Of a stretch of DNA of 64,000 nt, positions 8,224 to 58,840 are shown one piece after another; the stretch's first letter is position 1; each line of letters begins with the position of its first letter. This DNA comes from Bacillota bacterium. GTDB taxonomy: Bacteria > Bacillota > Sulfobacillia > JAUYEG01. The notes under the pieces are model-generated. The model did not search any database. It was given only the letters and a program-made list of their open reading frames with translations, and was not told the origin of the DNA. The translations under genes were made by a program, and so were the position numbers. The stretch spans positions 70,284 through 134,283 of the forward strand of contig JAXGPL010000006.1 in NCBI GenBank assembly GCA_040766985.1, read 5' to 3'.

Positions 8224-8239
8224 CATGCAACAAAAGTGA

Positions 8240-12933: not shown

Positions 12934-12965
12934 TGTTGGGGCGAGCGTCCCCCGTCCGTCCGTCA

Positions 12966-15286: not shown

Positions 15287-15394
15287 TCCCTTCCTCCAGT
15301 GGTGAGTCCCTGGAGGGTGCTGCCCTTGCGACGCTGAATCCTCAGGTGGTTAGCGCTCTGATTGACCAACCTTCTTCCTTGGGAGGCGACCCCC

Positions 15395-16699: not shown

Positions 16700-17096
16700 C
16701 CGTGGACCGCATCGGCGAAACCGACGCCTACAAGGTCTCCGCCCTGGTGTGTAACCGGCTTCCTGCCGACCTGTATCTGCAACAAGGGCCGCCAGCCTGG
16801 CGTGGTCAAGGCGGACCGCGTGCGGATCGAGTTGCCGGAGGTGGCAGTTGGTTTCCGGGGAGAAGGAGCAGGAGATCGGCTACCTCGACGGCTTCAGCGC
16901 CGGGCAACGGACCGGGTGGGCAGGGCGCAGCCGGGCAGTCGAGTGTGAGGGTGGAGTGGGTGGTGCAGGGCCCCGGGGCCGCAACCCGGCGCCCGAGCCC
17001 AGCGTGAAGGTCATTTCCAGCAGGGCGGGCGCGCGATCCAGGCACTCTTTGCCTAGGACGCCGGCTCAAGCGTCGATGAAACGCCGGGAAGGCTAA
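16690..17096 (+). pseudogene. Out-of-frame remnants of the M14 C-terminal domain (at least 4 frame changes)
   Basis: Successive frames read LELTVDRIGETDAYKVSALVCN / TGFLPT.ICNKGRQPGVVKADRVRIELPEVAV / SGEKEQEIGYLDGFSAGQRTGWAG / VRVEWVVQGPGAA / VKVISSRAGA. Together these look like one continuous domain. Confidence 0.6.
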
Positions 17097-17231
17097 GGCC
17101 TCCCGGCGTAAACTCCTCGGGTCCCTACAACAACTCGGACACTCGATAGCCACATCCGGCAACAGCCGGCTCTTGACCCTCTCGCCGGCGGCATATACCC
17201 CGATGGTGACCAACTCAGCTTGCCCAGACAA

Positions 17232-33535: not shown

Positions 33536-35239
33536 ATGCGCGACTTTTGGCTTGTACTGCGGGCGCACGTGGGCGTCTCGTGGCGGAGGCTCGGAAGGGG
33601 TGGCCGGGCTGCGGGGCTGCTGCTTCTCGGCATCGGGTTGGTGGTCGGCTTCGCGGCGCTGCTGGCCCGGGGCACGGTCGTTATGCTGCGGGGCCTGCAC
33701 GATGTCCTTGCGGGCTACCCGGAGCTCGTCCCCGCCGTCGAAGGCAACCTGCTCTTGATGTGGTCCCTGTTTGTCGTCGCCATCGTGCTCAGTAACGCTT
33801 TGCACACCACCTATGCGACGCTTTATGGGTCCGATGACACCGGATTTCTTCTGGCGACGCCGCTCAGCACCAGGTCGGTGTTCGCGGCGCGCCTGACTGC
33901 CAGCATGGCCGGGTACGTCGCCGTCGCGGTGCCCACCTTCGGGCCGTTCGTCGCCTATGGCATGGCTTACGGCGCCGGCGCCCGGTACTACGTGACCGCG
34001 GCGCTGGCGTATTTCGGGTTTCTGGCTTTGATGGTCGCCGTGGCGGCGCTGTTTATCACGCTGGTCATGGCCTTCGTGCCGGGCGCCCGGCTGAAGCAGT
34101 GGTTGATGACCCTGGGTCTCCTGATCGGCTTGGCCATCGTCTTCGGTACGCAGTATGTGGCGGCGGGCGTGGATCGGCAAGGCGGGGTAGTGGCGCTGTT
34201 GCAGCGGATCGGCGGGTTCAATCTTGGCGGCATCCCCGTGCTTCCGCACGTGTGGCTGGCCCGGGCAACGCAGGCGGCAGTCGCAGGCGGTGGGCTGAAC
34301 TATGTCCTTGCGCTTCTAGGTCTCACGGCCCTCGCCGGTTTTGTGCTCGTGAACTACGCTTCACGCGTGTACACGGTTGGCTGGGCCGGTGGGCAGGAAG
34401 CCCAGCGCCGTCGCGTGCGGGCGCCACGACGGCGCAGCACAACCACTGCGGCCGCCAAGGGAAGATCGCCCCTGGCTTCGCCCTTCTGGGGGCTCGCCCG
34501 CAAGGACTTCCTGGCCAGCGCCAGGACACCGGTGTTGTGGTACCTGTTGCTTGTGGGCGCTGTGGTGGTTGCATTCCAGATCATCAACATGGTGCGGGCA
34601 AGATCGGGGCAGCCGGTGGACGAGGGCGTCAGGTTGTTGTTGTTGGGGTTCGTTCTGGGCGGTGCGAGCTTCTCGGGGTCTGTCCTTGCAGGGTCGGCGT
34701 TCAGCCGCGAAGGCGGCAACTTCGGGCTGGTGCAGTCGTGGCCGGTCCCGGCGACCACGGTGTTCCTCGGCAAGGTTGCCGCCGCGTTGCCTGTGCCGTT
34801 GGCAGCCAGCGTCGCGGGGCTGCTTGCTGTGTCACGGTTCACACCGGTGGCCTTCGCTCCGCTCTGGCGGTACCTGCCGGTTGTGGTCTTAAGCATTCTC
34901 TCAGTGCTGTCGCTGATGGCCTTGCTGGACACGTTCTTTCCCGATTTCTCCTACGAGAAGGGGTTCGAGCCAGGCAGCCGCGGCTCGGGGACGACTGTGA
35001 TCAAGACGCTAGTGTCCGTCTACGGTGGGATCGGCATCATCGTACTGATGATGGCGACCCTCAGCTTCGGCTTCACTTACGGGAGGTTCGGCTGGGCACA
35101 GTCGTTAACCCAGGGTCAAGCCGGTGCTTTGGCCTACGCGCTATTCGTGGCGGAGGCAGCTCTGTTTACGGTCGGCGCGGTGGCGCTGGGGTCGCGTCGG
35201 CTGGCCGCGCTCGCTCAGCGTGATGTGAGGCGGAGATAG
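33536..35239 (+). CDS. Large polytopic membrane protein, probable permease partner of the ABC ATPase
   Basis: Starts 3 nt after the ATPase stop. 567 aa with many hydrophobic segments. Resembles putative ABC-exporter membrane proteins (tentative). Confidence 0.65.
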   Translation: MRDFWLVLRAHVGVSWRRLGRGGRAAGLLLLGIGLVVGFAALLARGTVVMLRGLHDVLAGYPELVPAVEGNLLLMWSLFVVAIVLSNALHTTYATLYGSDDTGFLLATPLSTRSVFAARLTASMAGYVAVAVPTFGPFVAYGMAYGAGARYYVTAALAYFGFLALMVAVAALFITLVMAFVPGARLKQWLMTLGLLIGLAIVFGTQYVAAGVDRQGGVVALLQRIGGFNLGGIPVLPHVWLARATQAAVAGGGLNYVLALLGLTALAGFVLVNYASRVYTVGWAGGQEAQRRRVRAPRRRSTTTAAAKGRSPLASPFWGLARKDFLASARTPVLWYLLLVGAVVVAFQIINMVRARSGQPVDEGVRLLLLGFVLGGASFSGSVLAGSAFSREGGNFGLVQSWPVPATTVFLGKVAAALPVPLAASVAGLLAVSRFTPVAFAPLWRYLPVVVLSILSVLSLMALLDTFFPDFSYEKGFEPGSRGSGTTVIKTLVSVYGGIGIIVLMMATLSFGFTYGRFGWAQSLTQGQAGALAYALFVAEAALFTVGAVALGSRRLAALAQRDVRRR

Positions 35240-35654
35240 ACATGGCAGGTGGTTTCACGGGTCGGTCAAATCAGCCCCGCGGCTAGTTGCCGAGCTCGGC
35301 GGGACGCCAATTCGCCTGCCGTCGATGCGTGCCTGGTCCCACAGCCCGGAATCTCGGCCGTCAGCTCCGCGCGCACTCGGGCCAGCATCGCCTCGAGCGG
35401 GCACGCCGTGCCCTCAGACAGCACGCTGAGGCCACCGAGGAGCCCTGAGATCTCGCTGCAGCCGTAAAGCAGGGCCAGCAAGCCGATGGCTTCATCGGCT
35501 CTGGATTGCAGGGAAGGCCTTGCCACCGGGGCGAGTGCAGCCTCTACGACCGCGGCGCTTGTTCACCCCTTGCCGGCGGAGTCCCTCCGATGGCAGGGGA
35601 GATGCGTAAGCTGACGAATAACGCTTGCGCATCGGGATTGGGGAGGGAGCGAAG

Positions 35655-36137
35655 ATGGGTCGCCGCGACGAAATCACAAACCACCTTGTTCACTGGCAGG
35701 ACGTGTTGCGCCTGCGCGATTGGGACATCCGCCTGGAGATCGCCCCTGCGTCCTGGCGTAAGTCAGGCGACATCAAAATCGACCTTGAAGATCGCAAAGC
35801 GGTGATGATCATAAACGAGCGGCCCAGGACAGAGAACCTCGAGGAACTCGTCGTCCACGAACTCCTGCACGTCAAGCTGTATGCCATGGACCAGATGCTC
35901 ACCGAACTGCTCGGCACCGTCTTCGGCGAGGATCCTGACGATCCAAAGCGCGAATTCGCCTATACGCAGTTCATGGTGCTGCTGGAGTCGACCGTGGAAG
36001 ACCTCACCAAAGGCTATCTGGCTGCCGCAGGCACGGGCAACGACCTTTCCTTCGGCCGTATCCGGCGAGAAGTCACCGCGGAAATCGAGTCTGCCCGGAC
36101 AGTCGCCCCAGGCGACGCCGGCGGGTTAAGCAAGTAG
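35655..36137 (+). CDS. Hypothetical protein with an HExxH motif
   Basis: ATG at 35655, 5 nt after GGAGGGAG. ...LEELVVHELLHVKLYAMDQ... I recognise no family. Confidence 0.5.
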   Translation: MGRRDEITNHLVHWQDVLRLRDWDIRLEIAPASWRKSGDIKIDLEDRKAVMIINERPRTENLEELVVHELLHVKLYAMDQMLTELLGTVFGEDPDDPKREFAYTQFMVLLESTVEDLTKGYLAAAGTGNDLSFGRIRREVTAEIESARTVAPGDAGGLSK

Positions 36138-36348
36138 CCCGCACATATCAATCTGGAGGGAGAGTGATGGGCGGGCAGAGAATCTTCCGCGCAGGATAAT
36201 CCGTAGCAGCGTACTTGCCACATCCGTTCCAGCGCCTATCGTCACCCTCCGAAGGGAGGTGCCGCCTGGTAGCAATACCCTGCACTAATCCGTCTCCTTT
36301 TGTCGTCGTGACGAGTCGTTTGTGATGAGCGAACGGAAGGAGGCTACC

Positions 36349-37128
36349 ATGTCCCTCTATGCAGGCAGGCTTTCGCATTTGCTGTTCTTCGCCGCGTTTT
36401 GTGTGGTCACTTACCTCGGCATGAAGCGGTTTCGCGAAACCGGCAAGGTGCCCATCCGCAGGGTCACTGGCCTCGATGCGTTCGAGGAGGCCATCGGCCG
36501 CGCAACCGAACTTGGCCGGCCCGTCCACTACACCCTCGGCCGGGGCCTTTTTGATGCCGAGCACGGCGCGCAGACGTTTGCCGGTTTTTCGATGCTCAAG
36601 CACACCGCCGCGACCGCGGCACGCTACGGCTGCAGACTGATTGTGACAAACCAGAGCCCGCAGGCCCACCCGGTCACAGAGGAGATCGTCCGCACGGCCT
36701 TCATCGAGGCCGGCCACGCGGACGCGTTCAACCCGGACGACATCCGGTACCTGAGCGAAACCCAAAACGCTTATGTGTCCGGCGTGATCGGGGTCATGGA
36801 GCGGGACAGAATCGCTGCCAACATCATGATCGGGTACTTTTACGCCGAGTCGATGATGCTCGCGGAAACCGCCAACAAGGTCGGCTCCATCCAGATCGCC
36901 GGCACCGCCAATACCCACCAGATCCCGTTCTTTGTGGCGGCTTGCGACTACACCCTCATCGGTGAGGAGATCTATGCCGCTTCGGCGTACCTCGAACGCC
37001 AGCCGGCGCAGATCGGCTCGCTGGTGGCCCAGGACTTCGGCAAGTTCCTGGCGGTCCTGTTCATTGTTCTGGGCACGCTTCTGGCTTCCGCAGGGCACTC
37101 GTTCCTGACCGATCTACTGAAGAAATAG
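36349..37128 (+). CDS. Unknown-function membrane operon copy A, subunit 1
   Basis: ATG at 36349, 6 nt after AAGGAGG. N- and C-terminal TM helices flank a soluble-looking core. Shares QIPFFVAACDYTLIGEE and G(L)(D/E)A(F/I)EEA(I/V)GRATE(L/M)G(R/K)PV with ORF 52058..52846. Confidence 0.7.
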   Translation: MSLYAGRLSHLLFFAAFCVVTYLGMKRFRETGKVPIRRVTGLDAFEEAIGRATELGRPVHYTLGRGLFDAEHGAQTFAGFSMLKHTAATAARYGCRLIVTNQSPQAHPVTEEIVRTAFIEAGHADAFNPDDIRYLSETQNAYVSGVIGVMERDRIAANIMIGYFYAESMMLAETANKVGSIQIAGTANTHQIPFFVAACDYTLIGEEIYAASAYLERQPAQIGSLVAQDFGKFLAVLFIVLGTLLASAGHSFLTDLLKK

Positions 37129-37141
37129 GGGGTGACTGGGG

Positions 37142-37777
37142 ATGAAACTTGTCGAGTGCCAATCTTTGTTTCGCTGGTCGTCGGCGTTGTCGTCGTGGCC
37201 GATTTCTTCATCAACCAGTCCGCCCTGGTTGCGACCTCGCGAGTTTATGAATTGGGGCGTGATCATCTCCGCCTTTGCCACGGGCCTCGGCGCTGCCAAC
37301 CTCCTGCGCATCCACGGTACCAGGACGCAGCAGCGCCGCGCCAACTGGCAGTACTCAATCGTGCTGCTGGTGGCGATGATCGGCTACACCGTGTTGGGCA
37401 TCGTCACCCGTAACACGTCTAAGCCGTACCTGTTCATCTTCGACAACATGTACAACCCGCTGGGAGCAACGGTGTTCTCGTTCAACGCGTTCTTCATGAC
37501 CTCTGCGGCGTACCGGGCGTTCCGCATCAAGACCGCCTCCGCGACGGTCCTGCTCATCGCCGCTCTCCTGGTGATGTTGGGCAACGTCGGGATCGGCGCC
37601 GTCATCTCGAAGCAGATACCGGAGATCGCGGGATGGATCTCGCGCGTGCCAACGACAGCCGGTTTCCGTGGGGTCACGATCGGAGCGGCCCTCGGCGCCA
37701 TCGGCCTCAGTCTCAGGATCATCCTCGGTATCGAAAGGTCGCACTTCGGCGGCACCGGCGGGGGTGGTAACGCATGA
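37142..37777 (+). CDS. Unknown-function membrane operon copy A, subunit 2 (compensated double frameshift near the N-terminus)
   Basis: The ORF is intact, but residues ~4-34 (VECQSLFRWSSALSSWPISSS...) are implausible. The other frame over ~37151-37240 reads RVPIFVSLVVGVVVVADFFINQSALVATS, which matches B2 (ELPIFLTGLTGLILIAHYYITIPIPFINR). From NWGVIISAF onward it is colinear with B2. Confidence 0.65.
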   Translation: MKLVECQSLFRWSSALSSWPISSSTSPPWLRPREFMNWGVIISAFATGLGAANLLRIHGTRTQQRRANWQYSIVLLVAMIGYTVLGIVTRNTSKPYLFIFDNMYNPLGATVFSFNAFFMTSAAYRAFRIKTASATVLLIAALLVMLGNVGIGAVISKQIPEIAGWISRVPTTAGFRGVTIGAALGAIGLSLRIILGIERSHFGGTGGGGNA

Positions 37778-38610
37778 ACTTCTGGGTTGGGGTGCAGAAC
37801 GTCGACCGGCGTATCTGGTACCTATTGCTGACCGTCTCGCTGTTCATCCCGTTGATCATGCCGTTGGGACTCCCGCTACAGGTCAGCCAGGAGGCCCAAA
37901 CGGTCTATGACACAATCGAGGCCCTGCCCGAAGGGGCGATCGTGATCGTCTCACCGAGCTATAGCCCCGGTACCGACGCGGAGAACTGGCCGCAGCACGC
38001 GGCGATCATCCAGCACCTGATCGCCAAGAAAGCCAAGGTGGTTCAGGTCTCGTTGGTCCTTGAGTCGGTGATGTATGCCACCCGCGCGCGTGAAGTGTAT
38101 TTCGACACGCTTGGCTACGTATATGGGACCGACCATGTGATCATGCCGTACAAGGCCGGCAGCGACGTCGCGATTGCGTCGATGGGCCGCGACTTCAAGG
38201 CCCTTTACACGGAGGACTACCTCGGGACCGCGGCCGACGATCTGCCGCTGATGAACCAGATCACGAGCATCCACGACATCGCCCTAATCGTCGACTTCAT
38301 GCCCGGCAACACTCTCGTGGACTATATCAAACAGATCGAGGGCACCTACAACATCCCCGTGACCGGGGGCGTGACAGGTGTCTGCATCCCCACGATGATG
38401 CCCTATGTGATGTCAGGCCAGTGTCGCGGCCTGCTGGGCGGGATGCGCGGCGCGGCTGAATACGAACTGCTGATCAAGTCGCCCGGCAAGGCGATCGGTG
38501 GTATGGACGCCCAGTCGCTGTCGCACCTGCTGATCATTTTCGCCATCGCTCTCGGCAACCTGGGCTACATCATCACGCGTGGCCATGGGAGAGGGGGCGC
38601 TGCGAAGTGA
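37774..38610 (+). CDS. Unknown-function membrane operon copy A, subunit 3
   Basis: ATGA overlap with subunit 2. N-terminal and C-terminal TM helices around a ~220-aa domain. Shares RG(A/G)AEYELL.K.PG......MDAQS..HLL with ORF 53510..54346. Confidence 0.7.
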   Translation: MNFWVGVQNVDRRIWYLLLTVSLFIPLIMPLGLPLQVSQEAQTVYDTIEALPEGAIVIVSPSYSPGTDAENWPQHAAIIQHLIAKKAKVVQVSLVLESVMYATRAREVYFDTLGYVYGTDHVIMPYKAGSDVAIASMGRDFKALYTEDYLGTAADDLPLMNQITSIHDIALIVDFMPGNTLVDYIKQIEGTYNIPVTGGVTGVCIPTMMPYVMSGQCRGLLGGMRGAAEYELLIKSPGKAIGGMDAQSLSHLLIIFAIALGNLGYIITRGHGRGGAAK

Positions 38611-39206
38611 GCACCGATCTCGGCGTCTGGATCGCCGCAGGGTGTACGATCTTCATGTACAGCTACCTGATTGGCGACAACCCGCTGTTCAAATTTGCCG
38701 AGCACCTTTACATCGGTATCTCGGCGGCGCACGCCGTCGTGCTCGGTTACCAGAACATTCAGGAGATGGCCTGGAAACCCCTCATCGACGGCAAGTGGAT
38801 CATGGTCATACCACTCGTCCTCGGGCTTTTGCTGTACACCCGGTTCGTCAAGGACTGGTCGAGTCTTTCGCGGATCCCGATTGCCTTCCTGACGGGCCTG
38901 GCTGCGGCGCTGTCCATCCGCGGCGCCCTTGACGCGTCCTTCATCAAGCAGGTGGCCGCGACGATGGTGCCGATCACCAACGTGAACGTTCTTCTGACAA
39001 TGGTCATGGTTGCGACGACGATCACCTACTTCTTCTTCACCGCAGGGTCGCAACTCGCTCCCGTTCAATTCAGCGCCCAGGTGGGCCGATGGGTCATGAT
39101 GGTTGCTTTCGGCTCCGCCTTCGGCAACACCGTCATGGCACGAATGTCGCTGGTCATCGGCAGGCTGCAGTTCCTGTTTGGGACCTGGATCAAGCTCATT
39201 AAGTAG
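38607..39206 (+). CDS. Unknown-function membrane operon copy A, subunit 4
   Basis: GTGA overlap with subunit 3. Polytopic. MSTDLGVWIAAGCTIFMYSYL...FAEHLYIGISAA parallels MSTNPGIWVASILTIFVYSYL...LTEHLYVGVAAG at 54349. Confidence 0.7.
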   Translation: MSTDLGVWIAAGCTIFMYSYLIGDNPLFKFAEHLYIGISAAHAVVLGYQNIQEMAWKPLIDGKWIMVIPLVLGLLLYTRFVKDWSSLSRIPIAFLTGLAAALSIRGALDASFIKQVAATMVPITNVNVLLTMVMVATTITYFFFTAGSQLAPVQFSAQVGRWVMMVAFGSAFGNTVMARMSLVIGRLQFLFGTWIKLIK

Positions 39207-39227
39207 GTAAGAGGGGCTCTGAGTATT

Positions 39228-39257
39228 GAGGCCCGGCGTCCAAGCACGCCGGGCCTC
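39228..39257 (+). terminator. Strong hairpin after operon copy A (no clear U-tract)
   Basis: GAGGCCCGGCG-TCCAAGCA-CGCCGGGCCTC, a perfect 11-bp stem. Confidence 0.4.
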
Positions 39258-39285
39258 AGTCCAGCCCTGGAGTGCGCGAAGCGGG

Positions 39286-39648
39286 GTGGTTCAGGTGTTC
39301 GAGTCGTTCAGCCACGCCTTTGAAGGTATCGTCCACGCGGTCAGGACCGAGACGAACATCCGCATCCAGTTGGCCGCCCTGGCCGCGGTCCTCGGGGCTG
39401 CGGCATGGTGCCGGGTGACACCTGTCGAGCTGGCGCTGCTGCTGCTCTCTTCCGGGTGTGTCATCGCGCTCGAACTGGTGAACACGGCCCTGGAAACCGT
39501 TGTCAACCTCGTCACCGAGGAGTACAGCGAGCGTGCCAAGCTGGCCAAGGACGTCGCCGCCGGGGCGGTGCTCGTGATGGCCGGCGTCTCTGTGCTGGTG
39601 GGCCTGGCCATTGTGCTCCCTCGCGCGGCGAGGGGGTTGGGTTTCTAG
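39286..39648 (+). CDS. dgkA: Diacylglycerol/undecaprenol kinase (DgkA family)
   Basis: GTG at 39286, in frame in ORF 39226..39648. FSHAFEGIVHAVRTETNIRIQL, IALELVNTALETVVNLV, AKDVAAGAVL. Confidence 0.8.
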   Translation: MVQVFESFSHAFEGIVHAVRTETNIRIQLAALAAVLGAAAWCRVTPVELALLLLSSGCVIALELVNTALETVVNLVTEEYSERAKLAKDVAAGAVLVMAGVSVLVGLAIVLPRAARGLGF

Positions 39649-45993: not shown

Positions 45994-48354
45994 ATGATCA
46001 CCAACCGTGTGGCCAGACTCCGGCAGCAGAGCCTTGACGCCCAGCCCCGCATCTCGACGGAGCGGGCGGAGTTGCTGACGGAGTTTGACCGGACCTGCCG
46101 TGAAACCGCTGTGCCGGTGCGCCGCGCGCTGGCCTTCCAATACATTCTTGAGCACAAAGCCATCGCGATTGGGCCAGGCGAACTGATCGTCGGCGAACGC
46201 GGCCCGTCTCCGAAAGCTACTCCCACCTATCCCGAGCTGTGCTGCCACAGCCTGGCCGACCTCGACCTCCTCGACAGCAGGCCCAAGATCCCGTTCCGGG
46301 TCGACGAGAGGTCGCGACGGGTGTACGAGGAGAGCATCATTCCCTATTGGCAGGGCCGTTCGATACGCGACATGCTGTTCGCGGCGATGAGCCCGGAGTG
46401 GGTTGCAGCATATGACGCCGGGATGTTCACGGAGTTCATGGAGCAGCGGGCGCCGGGGCATACGGTCTGCGGCGACAAGATCTACCGCAAGGGTTTCCTT
46501 GATATCAAACGGGACGTTGAATCACACCTTGCCCGCCTCGACTACCTCCGAGACCCCATGGCATACGACAAGCGCCTTGAACTCAGGGCGATGCGGATCT
46601 GCTGTGACGCGATCATCGCTTACGCGGCCAGGCACGCCGGACTGGCCCGCGAACTAGCCGCCTCGGAGGCCGACGCGACCAGGCAGGCTGAATTGCTGAA
46701 GATCGCTGAGGTCTGCGGGCATGTGCCCGCGGAGGCCCCCAGGGATTTTTGGGAGGCCCTGCAGGCGTATTGGTTTGTGCACCTCGGCGTGATTACCGAG
46801 CTGAACACGTGGGACTCGTTTTGCCCAGGGCGTCTTGACCAGCACCTTGAGCCGTTCTACCGGCAGGGCCTGGAGCAGGGCTCCCTGACGCGGGAGCAGG
46901 CCGAGGAGTTGCTGCAGTGTTTTTGGGTCAAGTTCAACAACCAGCCCGCGCCCCCCAAGGTCGGAGTCACCGCAGCCGAGTCGGGCACGTATACCGACTT
47001 TGCCAACATCAACAGCGGCGGCCTCCGCGCCGACGGGACCGACGGCGTCAACGAGGTCACATACCTTGTGCTGGACGTGATCGACCAGATGCGGTTACTG
47101 CAGCCGAGTTCGAACATCCAGGTCAGCAAGAAGAGCCCAGACGCCTTCGTCCGCCGTGCCGCCCGCATCATCCGCAAGGGTTGGGGTCAGCCCTCGGTCT
47201 TCAACGCGGACGCGGTGGTTGCCGAACTGCTAAGGCAGGGCAAGAGCCTCGAAGACGCCAGGATGGGCGGCACGAGCGGGTGTGTCGAAACTGGCGCCTT
47301 CGGCAAGGAAAGCTACATCCTGACCGGATATCTCAATCTCCCCAAGATCTTCGAACTCACCCTCAGCCGGGGCGTCGATCCGCGCACAGGACGCCGGCTC
47401 GGACCCGATACCGGCGACGCCGCGTCATTCACGGGGTTTGAGCAACTGTGGGCCGCTTACCGCAGGCAACTCGACCACATGGTCGAGGTAAAGATCGCCG
47501 GCAGCAACATCATCGAACGCCTTTACGCGCAACACATGCCCGCGCCGTTCCTTTCGCTCGTGATCGACGACTGCGTGACCAACGGCCGCGACTACAATGC
47601 GGGCGGAGCTCGGTACGATACGAGCTACATTCAGGGCGTCGGCATCGGTACACTGACCGACTCGCTGGCGGCCATCAAGCACCTCGTTTACGAGAGCGGC
47701 GTCCTGACGATGGCGCAGTTGCTTGGAGCCCTGAGCGCAGACTTCGAGGGCTCGGAGGACGTCAGGCAGTACCTCGTCAACCGGGCACCCAAGTACGGCA
47801 ACGACGACGACCGGGCCGACGAACTGATGCGCATGGCCTTTGACGCTTTCTACGAGACCGTCAACGGCAGGCCTAACACGCGCGGCGGGACTTACCGCAT
47901 CAACATGTTGCCGACGACGTGCCACGTCTACTTTGGCTCCGTAACCGGCGCAACCCCCGACGGTCGCCGCGGCGGCCTGCCGCTGTCGGAGGGCATCTCC
48001 CCGGTCCAGGGGGCGGACCGCAAAGGGCCGACAGCTGTCATCCAGTCCTGCGCCAAGATGGATCACCTCCGCACCGGCGGAACGTTGCTGAACATGAAGT
48101 TTACGCCGTCGGTGCTGGAAGGGGAGAAGGGGCTCGACAACCTCGTGCACCTCATCCGCGCCTACTTCAAGCTGGACGGCCACCATGTGCAGTTCAACGT
48201 CGTCGATGCCGAGACGCTCCGGGCCGCTCAGCGCGAGCCGGAGAAGCACCGCGACCTGATTGTGCGCGTGGCGGGGTACAGCGACTTCTTCTGCGACCTA
48301 AGCCCTGCCCTGCAGGATGAGATCATCGCCAGGACGGCGCACACCACCGCCTAA
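45994..48354 (+). CDS. Glycyl radical enzyme, PFL2/eliminase class (substrate unknown)
   Basis: 786 aa, intact. Cys loop GGTSGCVETGAFG (TGT GTC GAA at 47281-47289). Glycyl-radical motif LIVRVAGYSDFF near the C-terminus. Confidence 0.9.
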   Translation: MITNRVARLRQQSLDAQPRISTERAELLTEFDRTCRETAVPVRRALAFQYILEHKAIAIGPGELIVGERGPSPKATPTYPELCCHSLADLDLLDSRPKIPFRVDERSRRVYEESIIPYWQGRSIRDMLFAAMSPEWVAAYDAGMFTEFMEQRAPGHTVCGDKIYRKGFLDIKRDVESHLARLDYLRDPMAYDKRLELRAMRICCDAIIAYAARHAGLARELAASEADATRQAELLKIAEVCGHVPAEAPRDFWEALQAYWFVHLGVITELNTWDSFCPGRLDQHLEPFYRQGLEQGSLTREQAEELLQCFWVKFNNQPAPPKVGVTAAESGTYTDFANINSGGLRADGTDGVNEVTYLVLDVIDQMRLLQPSSNIQVSKKSPDAFVRRAARIIRKGWGQPSVFNADAVVAELLRQGKSLEDARMGGTSGCVETGAFGKESYILTGYLNLPKIFELTLSRGVDPRTGRRLGPDTGDAASFTGFEQLWAAYRRQLDHMVEVKIAGSNIIERLYAQHMPAPFLSLVIDDCVTNGRDYNAGGARYDTSYIQGVGIGTLTDSLAAIKHLVYESGVLTMAQLLGALSADFEGSEDVRQYLVNRAPKYGNDDDRADELMRMAFDAFYETVNGRPNTRGGTYRINMLPTTCHVYFGSVTGATPDGRRGGLPLSEGISPVQGADRKGPTAVIQSCAKMDHLRTGGTLLNMKFTPSVLEGEKGLDNLVHLIRAYFKLDGHHVQFNVVDAETLRAAQREPEKHRDLIVRVAGYSDFFCDLSPALQDEIIARTAHTTA

Positions 48355-48911: not shown

Positions 48912-49189
48912 ATAGGTGGACGTGCGGCGACCCGGTTTCTGGGAAACCTGGTCGCTCTAAGCACGCGTTGCGCAGAACGCGGTCACGGATCGACCTTAAG
49001 GGGCCGCCAAGGTCGTTTTGTTACCGCATTCCTGGAAACCTGGTTTCAGCAAAACCAGGTCACTGCGCCATCGGGTCGTTTTCCGCCCAATGCACCGCGC
49101 CCGTGGCCAGGCTCCCACGACGCCCCGCGCCCACGCCGGCGGCTGTGCGCGCCTTTGCGGGTGGGTGAGTCTTGCGAGGGGGATGCGAT

Positions 49190-50687
49190 ATGGGCGAATG
49201 GCAGGTCGGGTTGCCTCAGGACATCGAGGAAATGACCACCGTGCAGATGCAGGAGGCGATGGCCGACGGGCGGCTGACTTCGCATGGACTGGCATTGGCG
49301 TATCTTGACCGGATCGCGCGGTACGACCACGCCGGACCAGGGATCAACGCCGTCCTGGAGATCAACCCGGATGCGCTGCACATCGCGCGGGCGATGGACG
49401 CCGAGCGTGCCCGTTCCGGCCCACGCGGGCCGTTGCACGGTATTCCCGTCCTGCTCAAAGATAACATCGACACGGGAGACAAGATGCACACGAGCGCGGG
49501 GTCGCTGGCCCTGGCGGAGTCGTACGCCGCGGCGGATTCGTTCGTCGCCGCCCGGCTGCGTCACTGCGGAGCCGTCATCCTCGGCAAAGCCAACATGACG
49601 GAATGGGCCAACTTCATGACCGAGGGCATGCCCGCGGGTTACAGTTCGCGCGGCGGCCAAGTCCTCAACCCCTACCTGCCTGGCAAGTACACCGTCGGCG
49701 GCTCGAGCTCCGGTTCTGGTGCGGCGGTGGCGGCCAATCTGGCGGCCGCGGCAATCGGCACGGAAACCTCCGGCTCCATCCTCAGTCCCGCCAGCTCCAA
49801 TTCGGTCGTCGGCATCAAGCCGACAGTCGGGCTCGTGAGTCGCACAGGGATCATCCCGATAATGCACACCCAGGATACTGCCGGCCCGCTGGCTCGGACC
49901 GTGGCCGATGCGGCAGCGCTTCTGAGTGCTATCGCGGGCGTGGATGAGCGCGATCCGGCGACGTGGGCCTACGAGGGGAGGGCGTTTGCGGATTACACCG
50001 CTTTCCTCGACGGCCGTGCCCTGCGGCACGCGCGGCTCGGCGTGTGCCGGGACCTGCTCGGCCGGATGGACGGGGAGCAGCTGGCTCTGATGGAGCGTGC
50101 CTTCAGCGTGATGCGGGAAGCCGGCGCGGAGGTCATTGACCCCGTCGACATGCCTGTGGCACGGGAGAAGTACGACCGGACGGCGATGCTCTACGAGTTC
50201 AAACCCAATCTCAATGCCTACCTTGCTAGGCTTGGGCAGGCTGTGCCGGTCCATTCGCTCCGGGAGTTGATCGAGTACAATTCGCGGCACCCCAAGGCCA
50301 TGCTCCGCTATGGTCAGACTCTGCTCATCCAGTCCGAAACCAAATCCGGCGACCTTACCGAGCCGGAATACGTCCAAGCGCTTGCCAACGGCATTTACCA
50401 GTGCGCCGCACGGGGTATCGACAAGGTGATCGCCGAGCACCGGCTCGACGCCGTCGTGTTCCCCGGCAACCTGGGGGCATCGATCGCGGCCAAGCCAGGC
50501 TACCCATCGGTCTGTGTGCCGGGCGGGTACACTCCTGACGGGCGGCCCGGGTGTTACGTTCTGTGCAGGGGCGTGGAGCGAGCCGATGTTGATCGCCCTG
50601 GCATACGCGTTCGAGCAGGCGACAATGTACAGACGGCCGCCGGCGATGGACGGGCCCGCGCTGTCGACAGCTCCGCCCGAGGGTTAA
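49190..50687 (+). CDS. Amidase-signature (AS) family amidase; frameshifted near 50545-50552
   Basis: ATG at 49190 after [47 protein letters not shown]. After GGYTPDGRP the next frame reads [31 protein letters not shown]..., with the stop at 50685-50687. Confidence 0.85.
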
Positions 50688-50928
50688 CAGAATCTGCGTA
50701 GTCTTGCGTTGTTCCTGTACATTCATACAGCCATACGGCCGGCCGCCGCCAACGCTTCCAGGTGGTGGTTTGGTCTCTGCCAGGATTCGACTCTGCCACC
50801 GCGCAAACACAGGAGTACTCTGCCTCTCCGTCGAAGAGGTGATGTCTTAATGTGGGCATTATGCACAGCCACCGATGGCTTAGGCATGCGGCCCCGGCAA
50901 CAAGAAGGCTGGCAAGGGAGGTTTGGGT

Positions 50929-51906
50929 TTGGACGAGGATCTCAAAAAGCAGGTCGAGCAGTTGTTGTCTGCCCAGGAGGGTCTACAACACGTCTTTGCG
51001 CAGCTTTACAAGGCCGTTGACGATGTGTTGTGGTACCACAAGGTTGGCGACGTGGCGGAGCATGACACATTCGTCTACTGTGGGCCGCCGCCGGCCAACC
51101 TGAGTGCTCAACCGCCTCAGGACCGCGGCAACCCCGTCAAGATCAGGGCCTACCGGTTTTGGCCCAAAGGTATCGACAGGACCAAGAAGCATCCGCTGCT
51201 CGTGTACCCGCATGGCGGCGTGCACGCCAACTTTTCGAGCGCCGGCTCCAACGTCGTCCGGGAGATGGTCCAGCAAGGATACATCGTTGTCGCCCCGGAC
51301 TATCGCGGGTCCACGGGCTACGGCGAATACCTCTACCGTATGATTGACTACGGCGGGCTCGAGGTTGAGGACACGATGTGCGCCAGGGACTGGATGGTCG
51401 AGAACGACCCGCTCGTCGACCCGGAACGCGTCGGCATCCTCGGCTGGAGCCACGGCGGACTGCACACTCTGTTTAACATCTTCCGTTATCCGGAGAAGTA
51501 CAAGGTGGCCTACGCCGCGGTCCCGGTCAGCGATCTGGTCGCCCGGATGGCCTACAAGGGGCCGCACTACCACTCCCTGTACTCGGCGGACCACCACATC
51601 GGCAAGCCCGCGTGGGTTGACCCATGGGAGTACAAGCGGCGTTCGCCCGCGTACAACGCGGACAAGCTGCAGACACCGCTGCTGATCCACACGACGACCA
51701 ACGATGAGGACGTCAACGTGCTCGAAGTGGAGCACCTCATTGCACAGCTCAAGGCCGCCGGCAAGAAGTTTGAGTACAAGATCTACGACGCGGCCCCCGG
51801 AGGGCATGCGTTCAACCGCATCGATACGCCGCTGGCGCGCGAGTCGAGGCGGGAGGTGTGGGCCTTCCTGGCTAAACACCTTAACCCGCCCAATCCGCTC
51901 GTTTAG
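50929..51906 (+). CDS. S9-family/alpha-beta hydrolase peptidase
   Basis: TTG at 50929, 7 nt after GGGAGG. GILGWSHGG (GxSxG), TTNDEDVNV, GGHAFNR. Confidence 0.8.
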   Translation: MDEDLKKQVEQLLSAQEGLQHVFAQLYKAVDDVLWYHKVGDVAEHDTFVYCGPPPANLSAQPPQDRGNPVKIRAYRFWPKGIDRTKKHPLLVYPHGGVHANFSSAGSNVVREMVQQGYIVVAPDYRGSTGYGEYLYRMIDYGGLEVEDTMCARDWMVENDPLVDPERVGILGWSHGGLHTLFNIFRYPEKYKVAYAAVPVSDLVARMAYKGPHYHSLYSADHHIGKPAWVDPWEYKRRSPAYNADKLQTPLLIHTTTNDEDVNVLEVEHLIAQLKAAGKKFEYKIYDAAPGGHAFNRIDTPLARESRREVWAFLAKHLNPPNPLV

Positions 51907-52057: not shown

Positions 52058-52846
52058 ATGGAGGTGCAAGACAACTTGATTGCAGGACGGATTGCTGGAT
52101 TCTGGGCTCTTCTAGTCTCATTCGTACTGATGCTTCTGGCAGTCAGTAACGCCAAGAAGAGACTGCCCAAGATCCGGACGCTTGCTGGCCTGGAGGCGAT
52201 CGAAGAGGCGGTTGGCCGCGCGACCGAGATGGGCAAACCGGTGATGTTCACCCCGGGCTATGGGGACGTCGCCGGAACCAACGCAGCGCCCACGATCGCC
52301 GGACTCGATATGCTTGGCTATGTCGGGCGCCTAGCCGCCAGGCGCGATACCAAAATGGCAGTGACCGTGGGCCACCCCAATACATACACCGTTGCGCTGG
52401 ACGTTCTGAGGCGCGCATATATGGTTGAGGGCCGTCCCGATGCTCTGCCGGACGACGCTGTCACCTTTGGCTCCGAGATTCAGTTCGCGTTTACGGCTCA
52501 CACTCTCGGGCGTATCCAGCGGGAGAAGCCGGCAACCTGCCTGTTCCTCGGTTACTTCGCTGCGGAAGCGATCATCGTTGCTGAGGCAGCGGTAGCCGCC
52601 GGGTCAATCTCAATCGCTGGGGCGACAAACCACTTCCAGTTGCCGTTCTTTGTCGCCGCCTGCGACTACACCCTGATTGGAGAGGAATTCCTTGCGGCCG
52701 GCGCTTACGTGTCAAACGATCCGCGCCGCATTGGTTCAATCGCCGGTCAGGATTGGATCAAGGGCATTGCGGTCTTGATAGTAATCGCCGGGGTGGTCAT
52801 GCGGGCAACGGGCAACAACGCTATGACCACATGGCTCAGCAAATAG
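52058..52846 (+). CDS. Unknown-function membrane operon copy B, subunit 1
   Basis: 262 aa. TM-core-TM layout. LAGLEAIEEAVGRATEMGKPVMF and QLPFFVAACDYTLIGEE match copy A subunit 1. Confidence 0.7.
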   Translation: MEVQDNLIAGRIAGFWALLVSFVLMLLAVSNAKKRLPKIRTLAGLEAIEEAVGRATEMGKPVMFTPGYGDVAGTNAAPTIAGLDMLGYVGRLAARRDTKMAVTVGHPNTYTVALDVLRRAYMVEGRPDALPDDAVTFGSEIQFAFTAHTLGRIQREKPATCLFLGYFAAEAIIVAEAAVAAGSISIAGATNHFQLPFFVAACDYTLIGEEFLAAGAYVSNDPRRIGSIAGQDWIKGIAVLIVIAGVVMRATGNNAMTTWLSK

Positions 52847-52873
52847 GGCCGGCGGGAGAGGAGGGCGCGAACT

Positions 52874-53503
52874 ATGAAACGTGAGCTTCCCATATTCCTG
52901 ACAGGTCTGACCGGCCTGATCCTGATTGCGCACTACTACATCACCATTCCGATACCGTTCATCAACCGGCTCGCCGAGGCCATGCCGAACTGGGGTGTCA
53001 TCATTGCTGCCTTCACGCTGGCCTTGGCTGCTGCCAACCTGATCAAGATCCACCTGACACGGCTGATCCGTGGTGGCGGTATTGGCAGGGTCCTGCCCAG
53101 TGTGGTGCTCCTGGCGGGTCTGTTTGTGACGGCCATTTCGGGCATCTTCCTTGGGCAGAGTTCCACCTCGTTCAACTTCATCTTCACCAATATGTACACG
53201 CCCCTGGCTGCGGCCTTCTACGCGATGACGGCGTTTCACCTGGCTTCTGCATCATACCGGGCCTTCCGAGCGCGTACAGCTCAAGCTGCTGTGCTCCTCG
53301 TCACGGGTGTCCTTCTGATGCTGGGCCGGGCGCCCATCGGTGAGGCGGTCTGGGCCCAGTTCCCGACAATCGCTAACTGGATTATGAACGTCGGTAACCT
53401 GGCGGGGTCACGTGGAATCATGATTAGCATTGCCGTTGGTGTAATCGGTGTGAGCTTGCGGGTTCTCGTGGGCATCGACCGGGCACACCTGGGCGCGGAA
53501 TAG
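52874..53503 (+). CDS. Unknown-function membrane operon copy B, subunit 2
   Basis: AGGAGGG RBS 8 nt upstream. Polytopic. MPNWGVIIAAF, FIFTNMYTPL and ASASYRAFRARTA parallel the A2 motifs. Confidence 0.7.
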   Translation: MKRELPIFLTGLTGLILIAHYYITIPIPFINRLAEAMPNWGVIIAAFTLALAAANLIKIHLTRLIRGGGIGRVLPSVVLLAGLFVTAISGIFLGQSSTSFNFIFTNMYTPLAAAFYAMTAFHLASASYRAFRARTAQAAVLLVTGVLLMLGRAPIGEAVWAQFPTIANWIMNVGNLAGSRGIMISIAVGVIGVSLRVLVGIDRAHLGAE

Positions 53504-53509
53504 GGGGTC

Positions 53510-54346
53510 GTGCAGATGAGTCTGATTGAACGGCTCGGCCGCGTCGACAACCGGGTGATTTATGCGCTCTTGATAGTTGTACTGATTTGGCCGCTGGCAA
53601 AGCCACTCGGTCTTCCAGTTTCGGTCGGTGTCTATACCCAGAAGTCCTACGAGACTATCGATGCCCTTCAGGCCGGGGATGTGGTTCTCTTCTGTTCCGG
53701 CTACTCGGTATCAGGTGCCGGCGACGTCCAGGCTCAAGCCATTGCCATCTCGCGTCACCTGTTTGGGAAAGACGTCAAGGTCATCTTCTACTCGGATGTC
53801 GTCGAGGGGCCGATGGTGATCGAGAACGTTTTGACCAACATCCCGGAGATCCAGGGCAAGACCTACGGCGTCGACTGGGTCAACCTCGGTTACCTTGCCG
53901 GTGGAGAGATGGCCCACACCGCGGCCGCTAAGGGGCTTAAAGAGGCCTATCCGCTCGATTTCAAGGGCGATCCGACAGACACGCTTCCGATTCTTGAGAA
54001 CGTCAACACCGCCGGCGATGTAGCCCTGACGGTCTTCTTCACCACCCAGAACTCGGACATGTTCGTTCGTCAGATTACGCCTTACGGCAAACCAGTCATC
54101 GGCGGACTGATCAACACAATTGTTCCGCAGGCTGAGCCGTACGTGAACTCCGGACAGCTCACCAGCATCCTGGCCGGTCTGCGTGGCGGCGCTGAGTATG
54201 AGTTGTTGATGAAGCAGCCCGGCGTCGGTTTGGCGGCCATGGATGCCCAGAGCATGGGTCACCTGCTGTTTATCCTGTTTATCGGATTGGCCAATGTCGC
54301 CTACTTCTCGACACGCGGCAGGGCTGCTCGAAAGGTGGGTGGTTAG
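53510..54346 (+). CDS. Unknown-function membrane operon copy B, subunit 3
   Basis: 278 aa, the same length as A3. LRGGAEYELLMKQPGVGLAAMDAQSMGHLLFILFIGLANVAYF parallels A3. Confidence 0.7.
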   Translation: MQMSLIERLGRVDNRVIYALLIVVLIWPLAKPLGLPVSVGVYTQKSYETIDALQAGDVVLFCSGYSVSGAGDVQAQAIAISRHLFGKDVKVIFYSDVVEGPMVIENVLTNIPEIQGKTYGVDWVNLGYLAGGEMAHTAAAKGLKEAYPLDFKGDPTDTLPILENVNTAGDVALTVFFTTQNSDMFVRQITPYGKPVIGGLINTIVPQAEPYVNSGQLTSILAGLRGGAEYELLMKQPGVGLAAMDAQSMGHLLFILFIGLANVAYFSTRGRAARKVGG

Positions 54347-54348
54347 CT

Positions 54349-55046
54349 GTGTCCACCAATCCAGGGATTTGGGTTGCGTCGATCCTGACGATATTCGTCT
54401 ACTCCTATCTATTTAAGGAGAACCTGTTCTATCAACTGACCGAGCACCTCTATGTAGGCGTGGCCGCCGGGTACACGGTGACGATCGCGTGGACCAACAT
54501 CAAGTCAGCGGTTTGGCAGCCGTTGTCGGCCAAGGGCGATTACCTGGTACTTGTACCGGCAATCCTTGGCCTACTGCTCTTCGCACCGTTCGTTTCCCCG
54601 TCGCTCAAGTGGGTCAAGCGCATCCCGATTGCCGTTATCATCGGTATCGGCACTGCGCTCACTTTGCGGACCACGGTAATATCCAGTTCTTAGCCCAGCT
54701 AAAGGCGTCAATCATGACACTTAATAGTGTTGACAACGTGATTGTCGTGATCGGTACGCTGGCGACTTTGAGCTACTTCTTCTTTACCTACAAGCAGAAC
54801 CCGGTATTGCATGCCTCCTCCGAAATCGGCAAGTGGGTGATCATGGTCACCTTCGGCGCCGCGTTCGGCAGCGGCATCATGGGCCGGTTGTCGCTCCTGA
54901 TCGACCGGATCCTGCTGGTCTTCCGCGACTGGCTACCGCTGATACAAAGTAGCGTCGGCGCACCTTGGATGGAGCGCGTGGTCCGCGGCGGACAAACCGC
55001 CGCGGACCCGCCGTTATCCCCGCAGGGGATGGAGCAGATACCATGA
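54349..55046 (+). CDS. Unknown-function membrane operon copy B, subunit 4; frameshifted near 54674-54678
   Basis: GTG at 54349. The first frame stops at 54691-54693 after LTLRTTVISSS. The frame of ORF 54489..55046 continues NIQFLAQLKASIMTLNSVDN...GKWVIMVTFGAAFGSGIMGRLSLLIDRILLVF, colinear with A4. Confidence 0.65.
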
Positions 55047-55813
55047 CCGACGGCCGCCTTCCGCGACCTGACCGGTTTGACCCGGTGGCCCGACACTATG
55101 ACTTGGCCAACCGGCTGCTAAGCGTGGGCCTTGACCGCTGGTGGCGTAGGCAGGCTCTTGCCGCGCTCGCCTCCGCCCGGGGATCCGCCGTCATTGATCT
55201 ATGCTGCGGCACAGGTGACCTCGCCCTTGGGATCGCGGCCTCAGGGCTGCCGCAGGTGGTTGTAGGTCTGGATGTTTCCCCGGCAATGCTCGGGATGGCC
55301 CGGTCAAAGCTGGCCCGCGACGCGGCAAGGGTCAGTAGGGCAGGCCGCACCGTCCCGCCGGTGGCGCTGCTGCTTGCCGACGTCAGGCGGCTCCCGTTTC
55401 CGGATGCCGCCTTCGACTCGGCAGTCATGGGCTTTGGCTTGCGCAATGTGGCCGATCGGGACTTGGCGTTGGCCGAGGCCCACCGGGTTCTCGCGGGTAA
55501 CGGCCTGCTGGTGGTCCTGGAGTTCGTCCCGCCTGCAAAGGGTTTCTGCGGCAAGGCTGTCCGCCTGTGGATCGAGCGCGCTGTACCCGGACTGGGCGGA
55601 GTGGTCACGGGGGGCCGTGAACCCTACTCCTACCTAAGGGACTCGATCCTGTCCTTCCCGCCACCCGACCGCATCGCGGAGGAAATCCGCTCGGCAGGCT
55701 TTGCGCCGGTCAGCTATCGGCCCCTTTTTCCGGGCGTTGCCGGACTATGGGTCGCCCGGGCGACGGGAGCGGGGCCCAGCCACGGGGCGCAACGCCAATT
55801 GTCACGGTCCTAG
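55043..55813 (+). CDS. UbiE/MenG-type class I SAM-dependent methyltransferase
   Basis: ATG at 55043 overlaps the B4 stop (ATGA). FDPVARHYDLANRLLSVGLDRWWRR, VIDLCCGTGD, FGLRNV. Confidence 0.8.
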   Translation: MTDGRLPRPDRFDPVARHYDLANRLLSVGLDRWWRRQALAALASARGSAVIDLCCGTGDLALGIAASGLPQVVVGLDVSPAMLGMARSKLARDAARVSRAGRTVPPVALLLADVRRLPFPDAAFDSAVMGFGLRNVADRDLALAEAHRVLAGNGLLVVLEFVPPAKGFCGKAVRLWIERAVPGLGGVVTGGREPYSYLRDSILSFPPPDRIAEEIRSAGFAPVSYRPLFPGVAGLWVARATGAGPSHGAQRQLSRS

Positions 55814-57310: not shown

Positions 57311-58840
57311 CTATTGCCGCCCGATTGCAGCGAGACGGCCGTATAGAGACCTCACCCGCGGGTAGAGCTCGCGGTAGATTGCATATAGCTCGTCATACGG
57401 CGCCCGGTGGACGGCGCGCGGCTCGGTCACCGACGTAACCCTGGTAAACCGGCCGATTTCCGACCAGTCCGAGAACACCCCGCTGCCCATTCCCGCCACG
57501 AACGCCGCTCCCAGCGCCGATCCCGGGTGCTCGGCCTGATGCTCGACCGGCGAGCCGAGGATGTCCGCCGCAATCTGACGCCAGAGCCTGCTCCGTGCAC
57601 CCCCATCGGTGGCGACGATCCTCCGGGGAAGGTGGCCACGCTCGGCCAGGATGTCAAGGTGGTGGCGGAAACCGAACACGACGGCCTCCAGGATCGCCCG
57701 GTGGATGTGCTCGGGACCGTGGTGGAGAGAGAGCCCAAAGACAAGGCCCCGTGCCTCGGGGTTGTGGATGGGCGTCTTCTCGCCCACGAAGTACGGCAGC
57801 ACCACGAGGCTCTCAGGGCCGGGCTCCAGTCCCGCGGCCGCCGCGTCCAGCTGTTCGGGACGCTCCGCGACGCCGCCCATACGGTCCCCGAAATTCTGGC
57901 CGAACCACCTGACCAGCGACCCCCCGGCGGCCATGCAGCCGTTGATCAGGTACTTGCCGGGCGCGAGGTGATAGTCGATGTAAAGACGCGGGTCGGTGTC
58001 AAGGCGCTCCAGGCAAAACAGGATATCTCCTGCGCCGCCGAACTTGATGTTCAGGTCGCCCTCGTCGACAAGGCCTGCCGCGAAGGCCGACGCCACATGG
58101 TCGGCGCACCCCACGACGACCGGCAGCCCCTCCGGCAGTCCCGTCTCGCGGGCCGCATCTGCGGTCAAATACCCTGCAAGCTCCGCCGGGCGGCGTACCG
58201 GCGGACGCAAGTCGGTGTCGATGCCCGCAAGTTCGAGGTAGGGGGCGTGCCATGCCGCGGCGGCCAGGTCCGCCAGACCCGACTCGAGCGCCCAGTTGGC
58301 CTCGACGCTCAGGTTGCCGTCAGGCGGTAGGTGATGTAGTCGTAGGAGCCCAGCAGCCATCTTGCGCCGGCCATCACCCCGGGCTCGTGGCGGCGCAGCC
58401 ATTCGATCTTCGGAGCGATCAACTGCTGGTTGATGGACCCTCCGGTGACTCCGAAGAACTCCTCCGCGTCAACGAGACCGCGCATCCAGTCCAGTTCGGC
58501 AGCTGTGCGCGCGTCGTTCTGCTGGATCGATAGGCGGAGCGGGTTTCCGTGCCGGTCGAGGATCACCAGCGCCGGGACCATTCCGGATACTCCGACGGCC
58601 GCAATCGATTCGGGCTGCATGCCGGGGGCCCGGAGCAGGCCGCGGACTACGGCGAGCGTGTTGCGCCACCACTGGGCGGGATCCATCTCCGCCCAGCCCC
58701 GGGTGCTGTGAGATGAGTTGCTGCGGCTCGGACCGCTGGGCGACGATGCGGCCGGCATCATTGATCACGACGCCCTTGAGCGAAGTCGTCCCGACGTCAA
58801 GACCGATCAGCTGGCGTCCCCCGGCTTGCGCGCCCGTCAT
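57311..58840 (-). pseudogene. FGGY-family carbohydrate kinase, 2 frameshifts (~58697-58703 and ~58310-58325)
   Basis: LIGLDVGTTSLKGVVINDAGRIVAQ...SQHPG in one frame, WAEMDPAQWW...AAVGVSGMVPALVILD...LGSYDYITYRLT in a second, NLSVEANWALESGL...GCADHVASAFAAG...FGGAGD... in a third. The first junction lies in a CCCCGGG run. Confidence 0.8.

Follow-up and report, generated by a model that had tools for sequence, protein, structure and literature searches.

When a four-gene membrane operon occurs twice in one stretch of bacterial DNA, and one of the copies is followed by a gene for a UbiE/MenG-type methyltransferase, does that gene belong to the system or do the four genes form a unit of their own? 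The question is raised by a window of 64,000 nucleotides (the whole stretch analysed here) from a Bacillota bacterium (GenBank assembly GCA_040766985.1, contig JAXGPL010000006.1, positions 70,284 to 134,283 of the forward strand), in which the operon is present as copy A (36322-39206, genes A1 to A4) and copy B (52058-54952, genes B1 to B4). A first-pass annotation of the window had read copy B as an old duplicate coupled to the methyltransferase by a stop/start overlap, and had suggested a role connected with lipids or quinones. On the basis of sequence comparison, copy B is probably an intact, functional paralogue of a self-contained cassette encoding subunits S1, S2, S3 and S4 in that order, with the apparent break in B4 and the overlap with the methyltransferase gene both being artefactual.

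The copy B proteins were searched against the window by tblastn, and exactly one further copy was found, at 36340-39263 and with identical gene order. Identity was 39% between B1 and A1 (E 2e-57), 46% between B2 and A2 (E 4e-40) and 39% between B3 and A3 (E 1e-51), while the two pieces in which B4 appears matched A4 at 40% and 34% (E 2e-26 and 8e-18). Judged by these similarities the A/B paralogy is real and far beyond chance, and the description of a second copy with the same order and near-equal subunit lengths was confirmed (Table 1). The gaps between the genes of copy B are 27, 6 and 2 nt. Both B1 and A1 matched the Pfam family DUF6754 (PF20539) from end to end and far above its gathering score of 27 bits. 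Public gene calls start B3 at ATG 53516, giving a product of 276 amino acids (aa). The G+C content of both cassettes is lower, at 0.59-0.62, consistent with membrane-protein composition. An origin from a mobile element was considered and dropped, as B1 had no plasmid match and the low G+C content fits that composition.

In the first-pass annotation B4 had been placed at 54349-55046. This segment is 698 nt long, which is not a multiple of three, and contains two open reading frames (ORFs) in different frames, one of 114 aa at 54349-54693 (stop codon TAG) and one in the -1 frame at 54489-55046 (ending in TGA at 55044-55046). Orthologous loci found through homologues of B1 (L001, with 88% identity in S1, and L004 and L005, each with 77%) all carry an intact gene 4 of 200-201 aa, and alignment to these genes revealed a gap of one nucleotide in the window near 54681. 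An exact look-up of the B3 protein (P0121) then yielded four independent assemblies of essentially the same organism, namely L086 (GCA_964430585.1), L088 (GCA_040773805.1), and L087 and L089 from Logan. A gene 4 of 201 aa is encoded in L086, L087 and L089; the L088 contig stops shortly past the first break site, where its CCC run is intact. Relative to these assemblies a single C is missing from the window at each of three places, namely in ATCCCAG (~54683), in ATACCAAAG (~54946) and in an intergenic run of five (~55018). Elsewhere the DNA alignment is identical, save that the short contig L088 carries three substitutions and the intergenic DNA shows a few differences. A comparison of the window with L086 across 12.8 kb gave 99.69% identity and 10 indel events, most of which lie in G/C runs, so that the window must be taken to contain both under- and over-calls of homopolymers. 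Two of the 10 events break a gene for an FGGY-family kinase.

With these errors corrected, B4 has the C-terminus ...PLIPK and stops at the TAG at 54950-54952. The letters ATGA are present at 55043-55046, but the TGA among them is not in the frame of B4, and since the true gene has already ended at the TAG its overlap with the methyltransferase start is an artefact. These comparisons of assembled DNA thus show the frame breaks and the overlap to be homopolymer under-calls in this assembly, and neither the former extent of B4 nor its shared stop and start could be retained. A programmed -1 frameshift was also considered; it is not indicated, since no slippery heptamer was found at the B4 shift site, and it was dropped, the frame also being intact in the four other assemblies.

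The identification of the downstream gene as a UbiE/MenG-type methyltransferase was upheld at the level of the subfamily. Among the UbiE/MenG/COQ5 C-methyltransferases it scores above the TIGR01934 subfamily cut-off (197.5 against 158.35 bits) and below the cut-off of every equivalog model (best NF001244, 192.3 bits against 216), so that an exact substrate is not assigned. The true spacer between B4 and this gene is 90 nt, and the same 90-nt gap followed by a 256-aa UbiE-type gene is found in L086. The spacer contains a strong hairpin with fold z-scores of -3.5 to -4.3 (none of 200 shuffles folded as well), and strong hairpins of unrelated sequence follow gene 4 in L001 and in L004 (z = -6.2 in the latter). 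A scan for U-tract-dependent terminators found nothing in the spacer. Gene 4 and the methyltransferase gene are separated by 107 nt in L001 and by a gene for a 361-aa CarboxypepD_reg protein in L004 and L005. Translational coupling was likewise not found, the B4 stop at 54950-54952 lying well before the ATG at 55043 and the gaps in L086 and L001 measuring 90-107 nt. The two parts of the locus also diverge at different rates. Between the window and L001 or L004 the methyltransferase is 48% or 42% identical, as against 68-88% for the cassette proteins in the same pairs, and its ratio of non-synonymous to synonymous substitution (dN/dS) is 0.31-0.42 as against 0.04-0.21 for the cassette (approximate ratios, as dS is saturated), with non-synonymous change 2-4 times faster. 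The cassette is shown to end at 54952, and the UbiE/MenG-type gene to have an initiation site of its own and to adjoin the cassette in the closest relatives alone; it is a neighbour and not a component of the cassette, and the claim that the operon is coupled to it fell away. Two observations weigh the other way. The hairpin has no U-tract, so that B4 and the methyltransferase gene may be co-transcribed, and a UbiE-type gene does remain syntenic with cassette B in relatives with 77-88% identity in S1.

Table 1. Features of copies A and B and of the genes that follow them (coordinates of the window)
Feature	Coordinates	Strand	Evidence
A1, subunit 1 of copy A, 268 aa, DUF6754	36322..37128	+	PF20539 E 8e-86, 287.8 bits
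A2, subunit 2 of copy A, 211 aa	37142..37777	+	tblastn homology to B2
A3, subunit 3 of copy A, 278 aa, start overlapping A2 stop	37774..38610	+	tblastn homology to B3
A4, subunit 4 of copy A, 199 aa, one intact frame, start overlapping A3 stop	38607..39206	+	
DgkA-type (DAGK_prokar) gene, 20 nt past A4	39226..39648	+	PF01219 E 7.3e-31
B1, subunit 1, 262 aa, DUF6754	52058..52846	+	PF20539 E 1.5e-78, 263.9 bits
B2, subunit 2, 209 aa, six transmembrane helices	52874..53503	+	46% identity to A2
B3, subunit 3, 278 aa from GTG 53510	53510..54346	+	ORF and translation
B4, subunit 4, corrected product of 201 aa	54349..54952	+	alignments; intact gene in L086, L087, L089
Perfect 12-bp GC hairpin GGTCCGCGGCGG acaaa CCGCCGCGGACC	54980..55008	+	fold z-scores; without U-tract
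GGAG Shine-Dalgarno site, 7 nt before the methyltransferase ATG	55032..55035	+	read from sequence
UbiE/MenG-family S-adenosylmethionine (SAM) methyltransferase, 256 aa	55043..55813	+	PF01209 E 1.9e-46; TIGR01934 197.5 bits

A scan of one genome per species of the Genome Taxonomy Database (GTDB) returned at least 579 loci with a DUF6754 relative, from which 80 were sampled across about a dozen phyla, together with flanks of at most 10 kb on either side. The sample comprised Bacillota (including Fermentithermobacillaceae and Symbiobacterium), Zixibacteria, Ignavibacteriales, Phycisphaerae and other Planctomycetota, Eisenbacteria, WOR-3, Stahlbacteria, Elusimicrobia, Gemmatimonadetes and Terriglobia. 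It was searched by tblastn for every subunit of both copies and for the methyltransferase and DgkA. The order 1-2-3-4 was kept in essentially all 80 loci, the exceptions being four loci with subunit 1 alone and a few truncated contigs, and 87 complete cassettes were obtained outside the window (from the 80 loci plus L001 and L004). Both window copies conform to this pattern, being co-directional, tightly spaced and in the same order, with all frames intact in copy A and, once the assembly errors in B4 are corrected, in copy B. The cassette thus occurs widely, in uncultured Bacillota, Zixibacteria, Ignavibacteria, Planctomycetota and further phyla, and is uncharacterised; among its carriers, Symbiobacterium thermophilum and Anaerobranca gottschalkii can be cultivated.

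The view that the duplication is old and has been kept under selection was supported throughout. Against their orthologues the copy B genes, all intact, have the low dN/dS given above, indicative of purifying selection. Between A and B the synonymous sites are saturated (proportion of synonymous differences, pS, 0.65-0.74), which makes the duplication an old one. A tree built by neighbour joining from 89 concatenated cassettes groups copy B in one clade with L001, L004, L006-L010, L012 and the first cassette of L011, and pairs copy A with the second cassette of L011; because A and B group with different L011 cassettes, their split predates those lineages. Alignment and phylogeny therefore agree on an ancient split with both copies retained. 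Two to four cassettes lie within 20 kb in about 18 of the 80 loci. Tandem triplets are found in Zixibacteria and Ignavibacteriales (L035, L037, L043, L044, L062, L070, L079 and L082, at about 6400-17200 in each), and L024 has four cassettes. The copies of the tandem triplets form three deep, position-specific clades, and since copies from different genomes cluster by position, the triplication is of ancient date, with every copy retained.

The subunits belong to large families about which little is recorded. Homologues of S1 number more than 7100 and are all annotated as hypothetical, and an exhaustive profile search with S3 gave 5491 representatives of 50%-identity clusters at E<=1e-3, of strikingly uniform length (mostly 265-293 aa). 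No Pfam or NCBIfam model matched S2, S3 or S4 at threshold. When S2 and S4 family members were compared with Pfam one by one (84 and 89 members), only scattered matches below threshold were obtained, for S2 chiefly to TMD0_ABC (13 of 84) and Acyl_transf_3 (11 of 84). Profile searches with all four subunits against the sequences of the PDB gave nothing below E 0.07. The Pfam record of DUF6754, for which neither a function nor a structure was found, is a catalogue entry only, in which the partner proteins and the four-gene unit are not described, and neither "DUF6754" nor "PF13941" (a family returned to below) occurs in any searchable paper.

AlphaFold2 models of B1 and B3 were obtained with mean confidence (pLDDT) of 92.9 and 93.7, and share one plan, in which a six-stranded Rossmann-like alpha/beta domain is set between an N-terminal and a C-terminal transmembrane (TM) helix. 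Foldseek comparison of B1 with the PDB returned generic Rossmann folds only, with a TM-score of at most 0.37 on the query, and comparison of the S1 and S3 models likewise gave generic Rossmann-type matches only (shikimate dehydrogenase, Moco-carrier/DprA, SIS and alcohol dehydrogenase). Charge bias over the family alignments places the predicted S1 domain in the cytoplasm, a position for which Zixibacterial proteins give independent support, since their DUF6754 TM helix comes after a signal peptide and an exported FN3-like region. By positive-inside analysis of its family alignments the S3 domain is probably extracytoplasmic, with both termini inside. From its hydropathy and its K/R profile, S2 spans the membrane six times and begins on the inside, and S4 has about six TM helices with its positive loops in the opposite register to those of S2, which suggests that S2 and S4 form an antiparallel pair. 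Profile-profile comparison gave a weak, collinear similarity of S3 to S1 (E 0.0036, 182 columns) and of S4 to S2 (E 0.0047, 75 columns), with a probability below 10% in both cases.

Two observations on DUF6754 proteins outside the cassette were made in passing. A very conserved stand-alone Zixibacterial protein of about 425 aa, with 77-86% identity across many contigs (P0222-P0341), consists of a signal peptide, an exported FN3-like region and then DUF6754, and occurs without S2-S4 nearby. In L067 (9440-11827) an ORF with a signal peptide, FN3-like region and DUF6754 continues into a peptidase S49 (SppA-like) domain. This fusion was considered as a Rosetta-stone clue and rejected, as the public protein is a 417-aa partial one and PF01343 was found in none of the 120 best homologues; the ORF is probably a read-through.

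On account of the strict co-occurrence and gene order of the four genes, we tentatively put forward that their products may assemble into a single hetero-oligomeric membrane complex of a transporter-like kind, by which a small molecule would be moved or processed across the membrane. In such a complex the Rossmann-like domain of S1, with its invariant polar residues (GRATE, AACDYT), would face the cytoplasm and the alpha/beta domain of S3 the outside, while S2 and S4, each of about 200 aa with six TM helices and possibly in opposite orientation, would form the path through the membrane. Paralogous cassettes, such as A and B here and the tandem triplets elsewhere, could represent specialised versions, for example for different substrates. 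Several points weigh against this proposal. No evidence names a substrate or an activity and no transporter family is matched; no solved structure is related by sequence, and none specifically by fold. The topologies come from a crude charge-bias analysis in which S4 is ambiguous, and the hhalign probabilities for S1 with S3 and for S2 with S4 are low, as given above. In addition, DUF6754 is found without S2-S4, in the FN3-DUF6754 proteins and in the three loci L026, L057 and L063, so that S1 is not strictly tied to the complex.

Clustering of all flanking ORFs, combined with Pfam searches, over the 80 loci identified recurrent partners in other lineages. A GlmL/MutL-type ASKHA ATPase of about 610 aa (PF13941, E 1e-121 to 1e-130) lies beside S1 in 25 loci, and an RnfC_N-like barrel-sandwich protein of about 375 aa in 29; they are accompanied by two small proteins, one in 17 loci and one in 10, and the small proteins of the set measure about 100 aa and 170 aa. 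The set is seen for example in L041 (6565-9820), L027 (13190-17362) and L053 (13118-16978). These genes are located upstream of the cassette in Planctomycetota, Eisenbacteria, Gemmatimonadetes and others and downstream of it in the Bacillota loci L027 and L053, and their order differs between Bacillota and the other phyla. In L026, L057 and L063, all from Planctomycetota, a barrel-sandwich gene is followed by DUF6754 and S2, S3 and S4 were not detected; to judge from such arrangements, subunit 1 can work outside the four-gene cassette. The PF13941 match is to the accessory ATPase GlmL/MutL of glutamate mutase, but here the gene adjoins a membrane cassette and not a B12 mutase. None of the ATPase, barrel-sandwich or small-protein genes is present in the window.

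In those other lineages the ATPase and the barrel-sandwich protein may drive or regulate the complex. Taken further, the cassette might be the membrane part of a larger machine driven by ATP, and not an autonomous secondary transporter; the soluble components of that machine (the ATPase, barrel-sandwich and small proteins) would here be encoded elsewhere in the genome. The position of the partners directly beside S1 in several phyla, the rearranged gene order between Bacillota and other phyla, and the pairing of a barrel-sandwich gene with DUF6754 alone in Planctomycetes all speak for such a machine. Neither partner, however, is found in the window or in most Bacillota loci, and the cassette is conserved without them; we regard this alternative as rather unlikely, though less so than the others considered. 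A role in defence was also examined and dropped, since PADLOC models matched none of the subunits of either copy, and neither the ATPase nor the barrel-sandwich protein.

A bolder form of the proposed S1-S4 complex, which is unlikely to hold in all of its parts, would make it an unrecognised class of transport or translocation machine that arose by ancient duplication of a two-gene module. The duplicated module would have consisted of a TM-anchored Rossmann-like subunit and a six-TM subunit. With its halves now antiparallel in the membrane, the S1 domain would face inwards and the S3 domain outwards, the N-terminus of S2 being in and that of S4 out. The whole would be coupled in many phyla to the ATPase through the barrel-sandwich protein as adaptor, with paralogues specialised for substrate. 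The nearest parallels are partial ones. As in the cassette, the Rnf and Na+-NQR complexes have two six-TM subunits of about 200 aa per operon, possibly of opposite topology (RnfA/RnfE, NqrD/NqrE), and the frequent RnfC_N-like neighbour also recalls Rnf. However, no homology was detectable (PF02508 matched 2 of 84 S2 members below threshold, with a best E of 0.014, and 0 of 89 S4 members), and the cassette has no Fe-S or flavin-binding motifs and no equivalents of RnfB, C, D or G. The TRAP (DctPQM) and TTT (TctABC) transporters likewise join two membrane subunits to an extracytoplasmic alpha/beta domain, and there are multiple paralogous copies of them per genome, with varied neighbours. In contrast to these, with which no sequence or specific fold similarity was found, the cassette has an outside domain tethered by TM helices at both ends and an extra cytoplasmic Rossmann-like subunit.

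With three of its four subunits outside any family model and the fourth, DUF6754, in no paper, the cassette is a well-delimited piece of protein "dark matter". Its strict order, purifying selection, repeated ancient paralogy and partnership with a GlmL-type ATPase point to an important role in many anaerobic or uncultured bacteria, and with the unit and its likely topology now defined it can be tested directly.

The same 80 loci bear on the suggestion that cassette B and the UbiE/MenG-type gene form one unit acting on a membrane-embedded quinone or lipid, with copy A and DgkA in parallel. Copy A is indeed followed by dgkA, as first described, at a distance of only 20 nt; a UbiE-type gene follows cassette B in L086, L001, L004 and L005, with no U-tract terminator in the spacer of the window; and in Phycisphaerae the cassette is directly upstream of, and co-directional with, plsX-fabH-fabD...fabF (L050, 14286-20579, and equivalent regions in L052, L055, L064 and L084). 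However, no UbiE-type gene was found within the flanks of up to 10 kb in any of the 80 loci, by tblastn or, in agreement, by hidden Markov model and phmmer searches of the called ORFs; beyond the same-organism assemblies it was seen near a cassette only in the close relatives L001, L004 and L005. DgkA was found in a single locus (L021), 5 kb from the cassette. The plsX-fab arrangement, the sole other lipid neighbour (five loci by Pfam, six by clustering), belongs to one lineage, and the operon concerned is a housekeeping one. Within the locus itself, the stop/start overlap is an artefact that gives way to a 90-107-nt spacer with a strong hairpin or to the intervening 361-aa gene, and the methyltransferase has evolved the faster. 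A Pfam tally of the first upstream genes (77 proteins) and first downstream genes (68 proteins) gave no dominant family, the commonest downstream being Amidohydro_1 (7 of 68) and PlsX (5 of 68). The test proposed with the suggestion, a survey of homologous operons for ubiE/menG, dgkA or other lipid or quinone genes, thus produced no recurrent adjacency to quinone or lipid genes across unrelated lineages, which is the outcome named beforehand as refuting it. Nothing ties the cassette to quinones or lipids, and a joint unit of this kind is very improbable.

No more credible is a truly frameshifted B4 in a decaying pseudo-operon, which would make a 114-aa S4 or a frame read through to the methyltransferase start: the window as given does hold both frame breaks, but the four assemblies with an identical S3 protein have gene 4 intact (L086, L087, L089) or an intact CCC run at the first site (L088), the differences are single-base losses in C runs of a sort that also affects the FGGY kinase, B1-B3 are intact and strongly conserved, and the shift site has no slippery heptamer.

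Some further genes of the window lie close to the two copies. Upstream of copy A are an ABC ATPase (32733-33533), a 567-aa PF16949 "putative ABC" membrane protein (33536-35239) and a 170-aa protein without a family (35625-36137), and related ABC ATPase genes were seen near cassettes in three other loci. Upstream of copy B, a PFL-like glycyl-radical enzyme of 786 aa (45994-48354), an amidase (49172-50701) and an S9/DLH hydrolase (50923-51906) form a synteny that is conserved upstream of cassette B in close relatives; in L004 the glycyl-radical enzyme is preceded by a radical-SAM activase.

Homopolymer errors in assemblies of the long-read style can produce false gene fusions and overlaps, and other frameshifts or fusions that the window seems to show are not to be relied on. 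The FGGY-family sugar kinase at 57311-58761 on the reverse strand, unrelated to the cassette and 3 kb from it, appears in the window as ORFs of 363 and 150 aa where L086 has a single 509-aa gene; the two indels responsible, at 58314 and 58697, are single-base errors in short base runs, like those of B4. Other indels relative to L086 are located at 48517 (3 nt), 50549 (2 nt), 59106 and 59248, and that at 50549 is near the end of the amidase gene, whose product is 509 aa in the window and 499 aa in L086.

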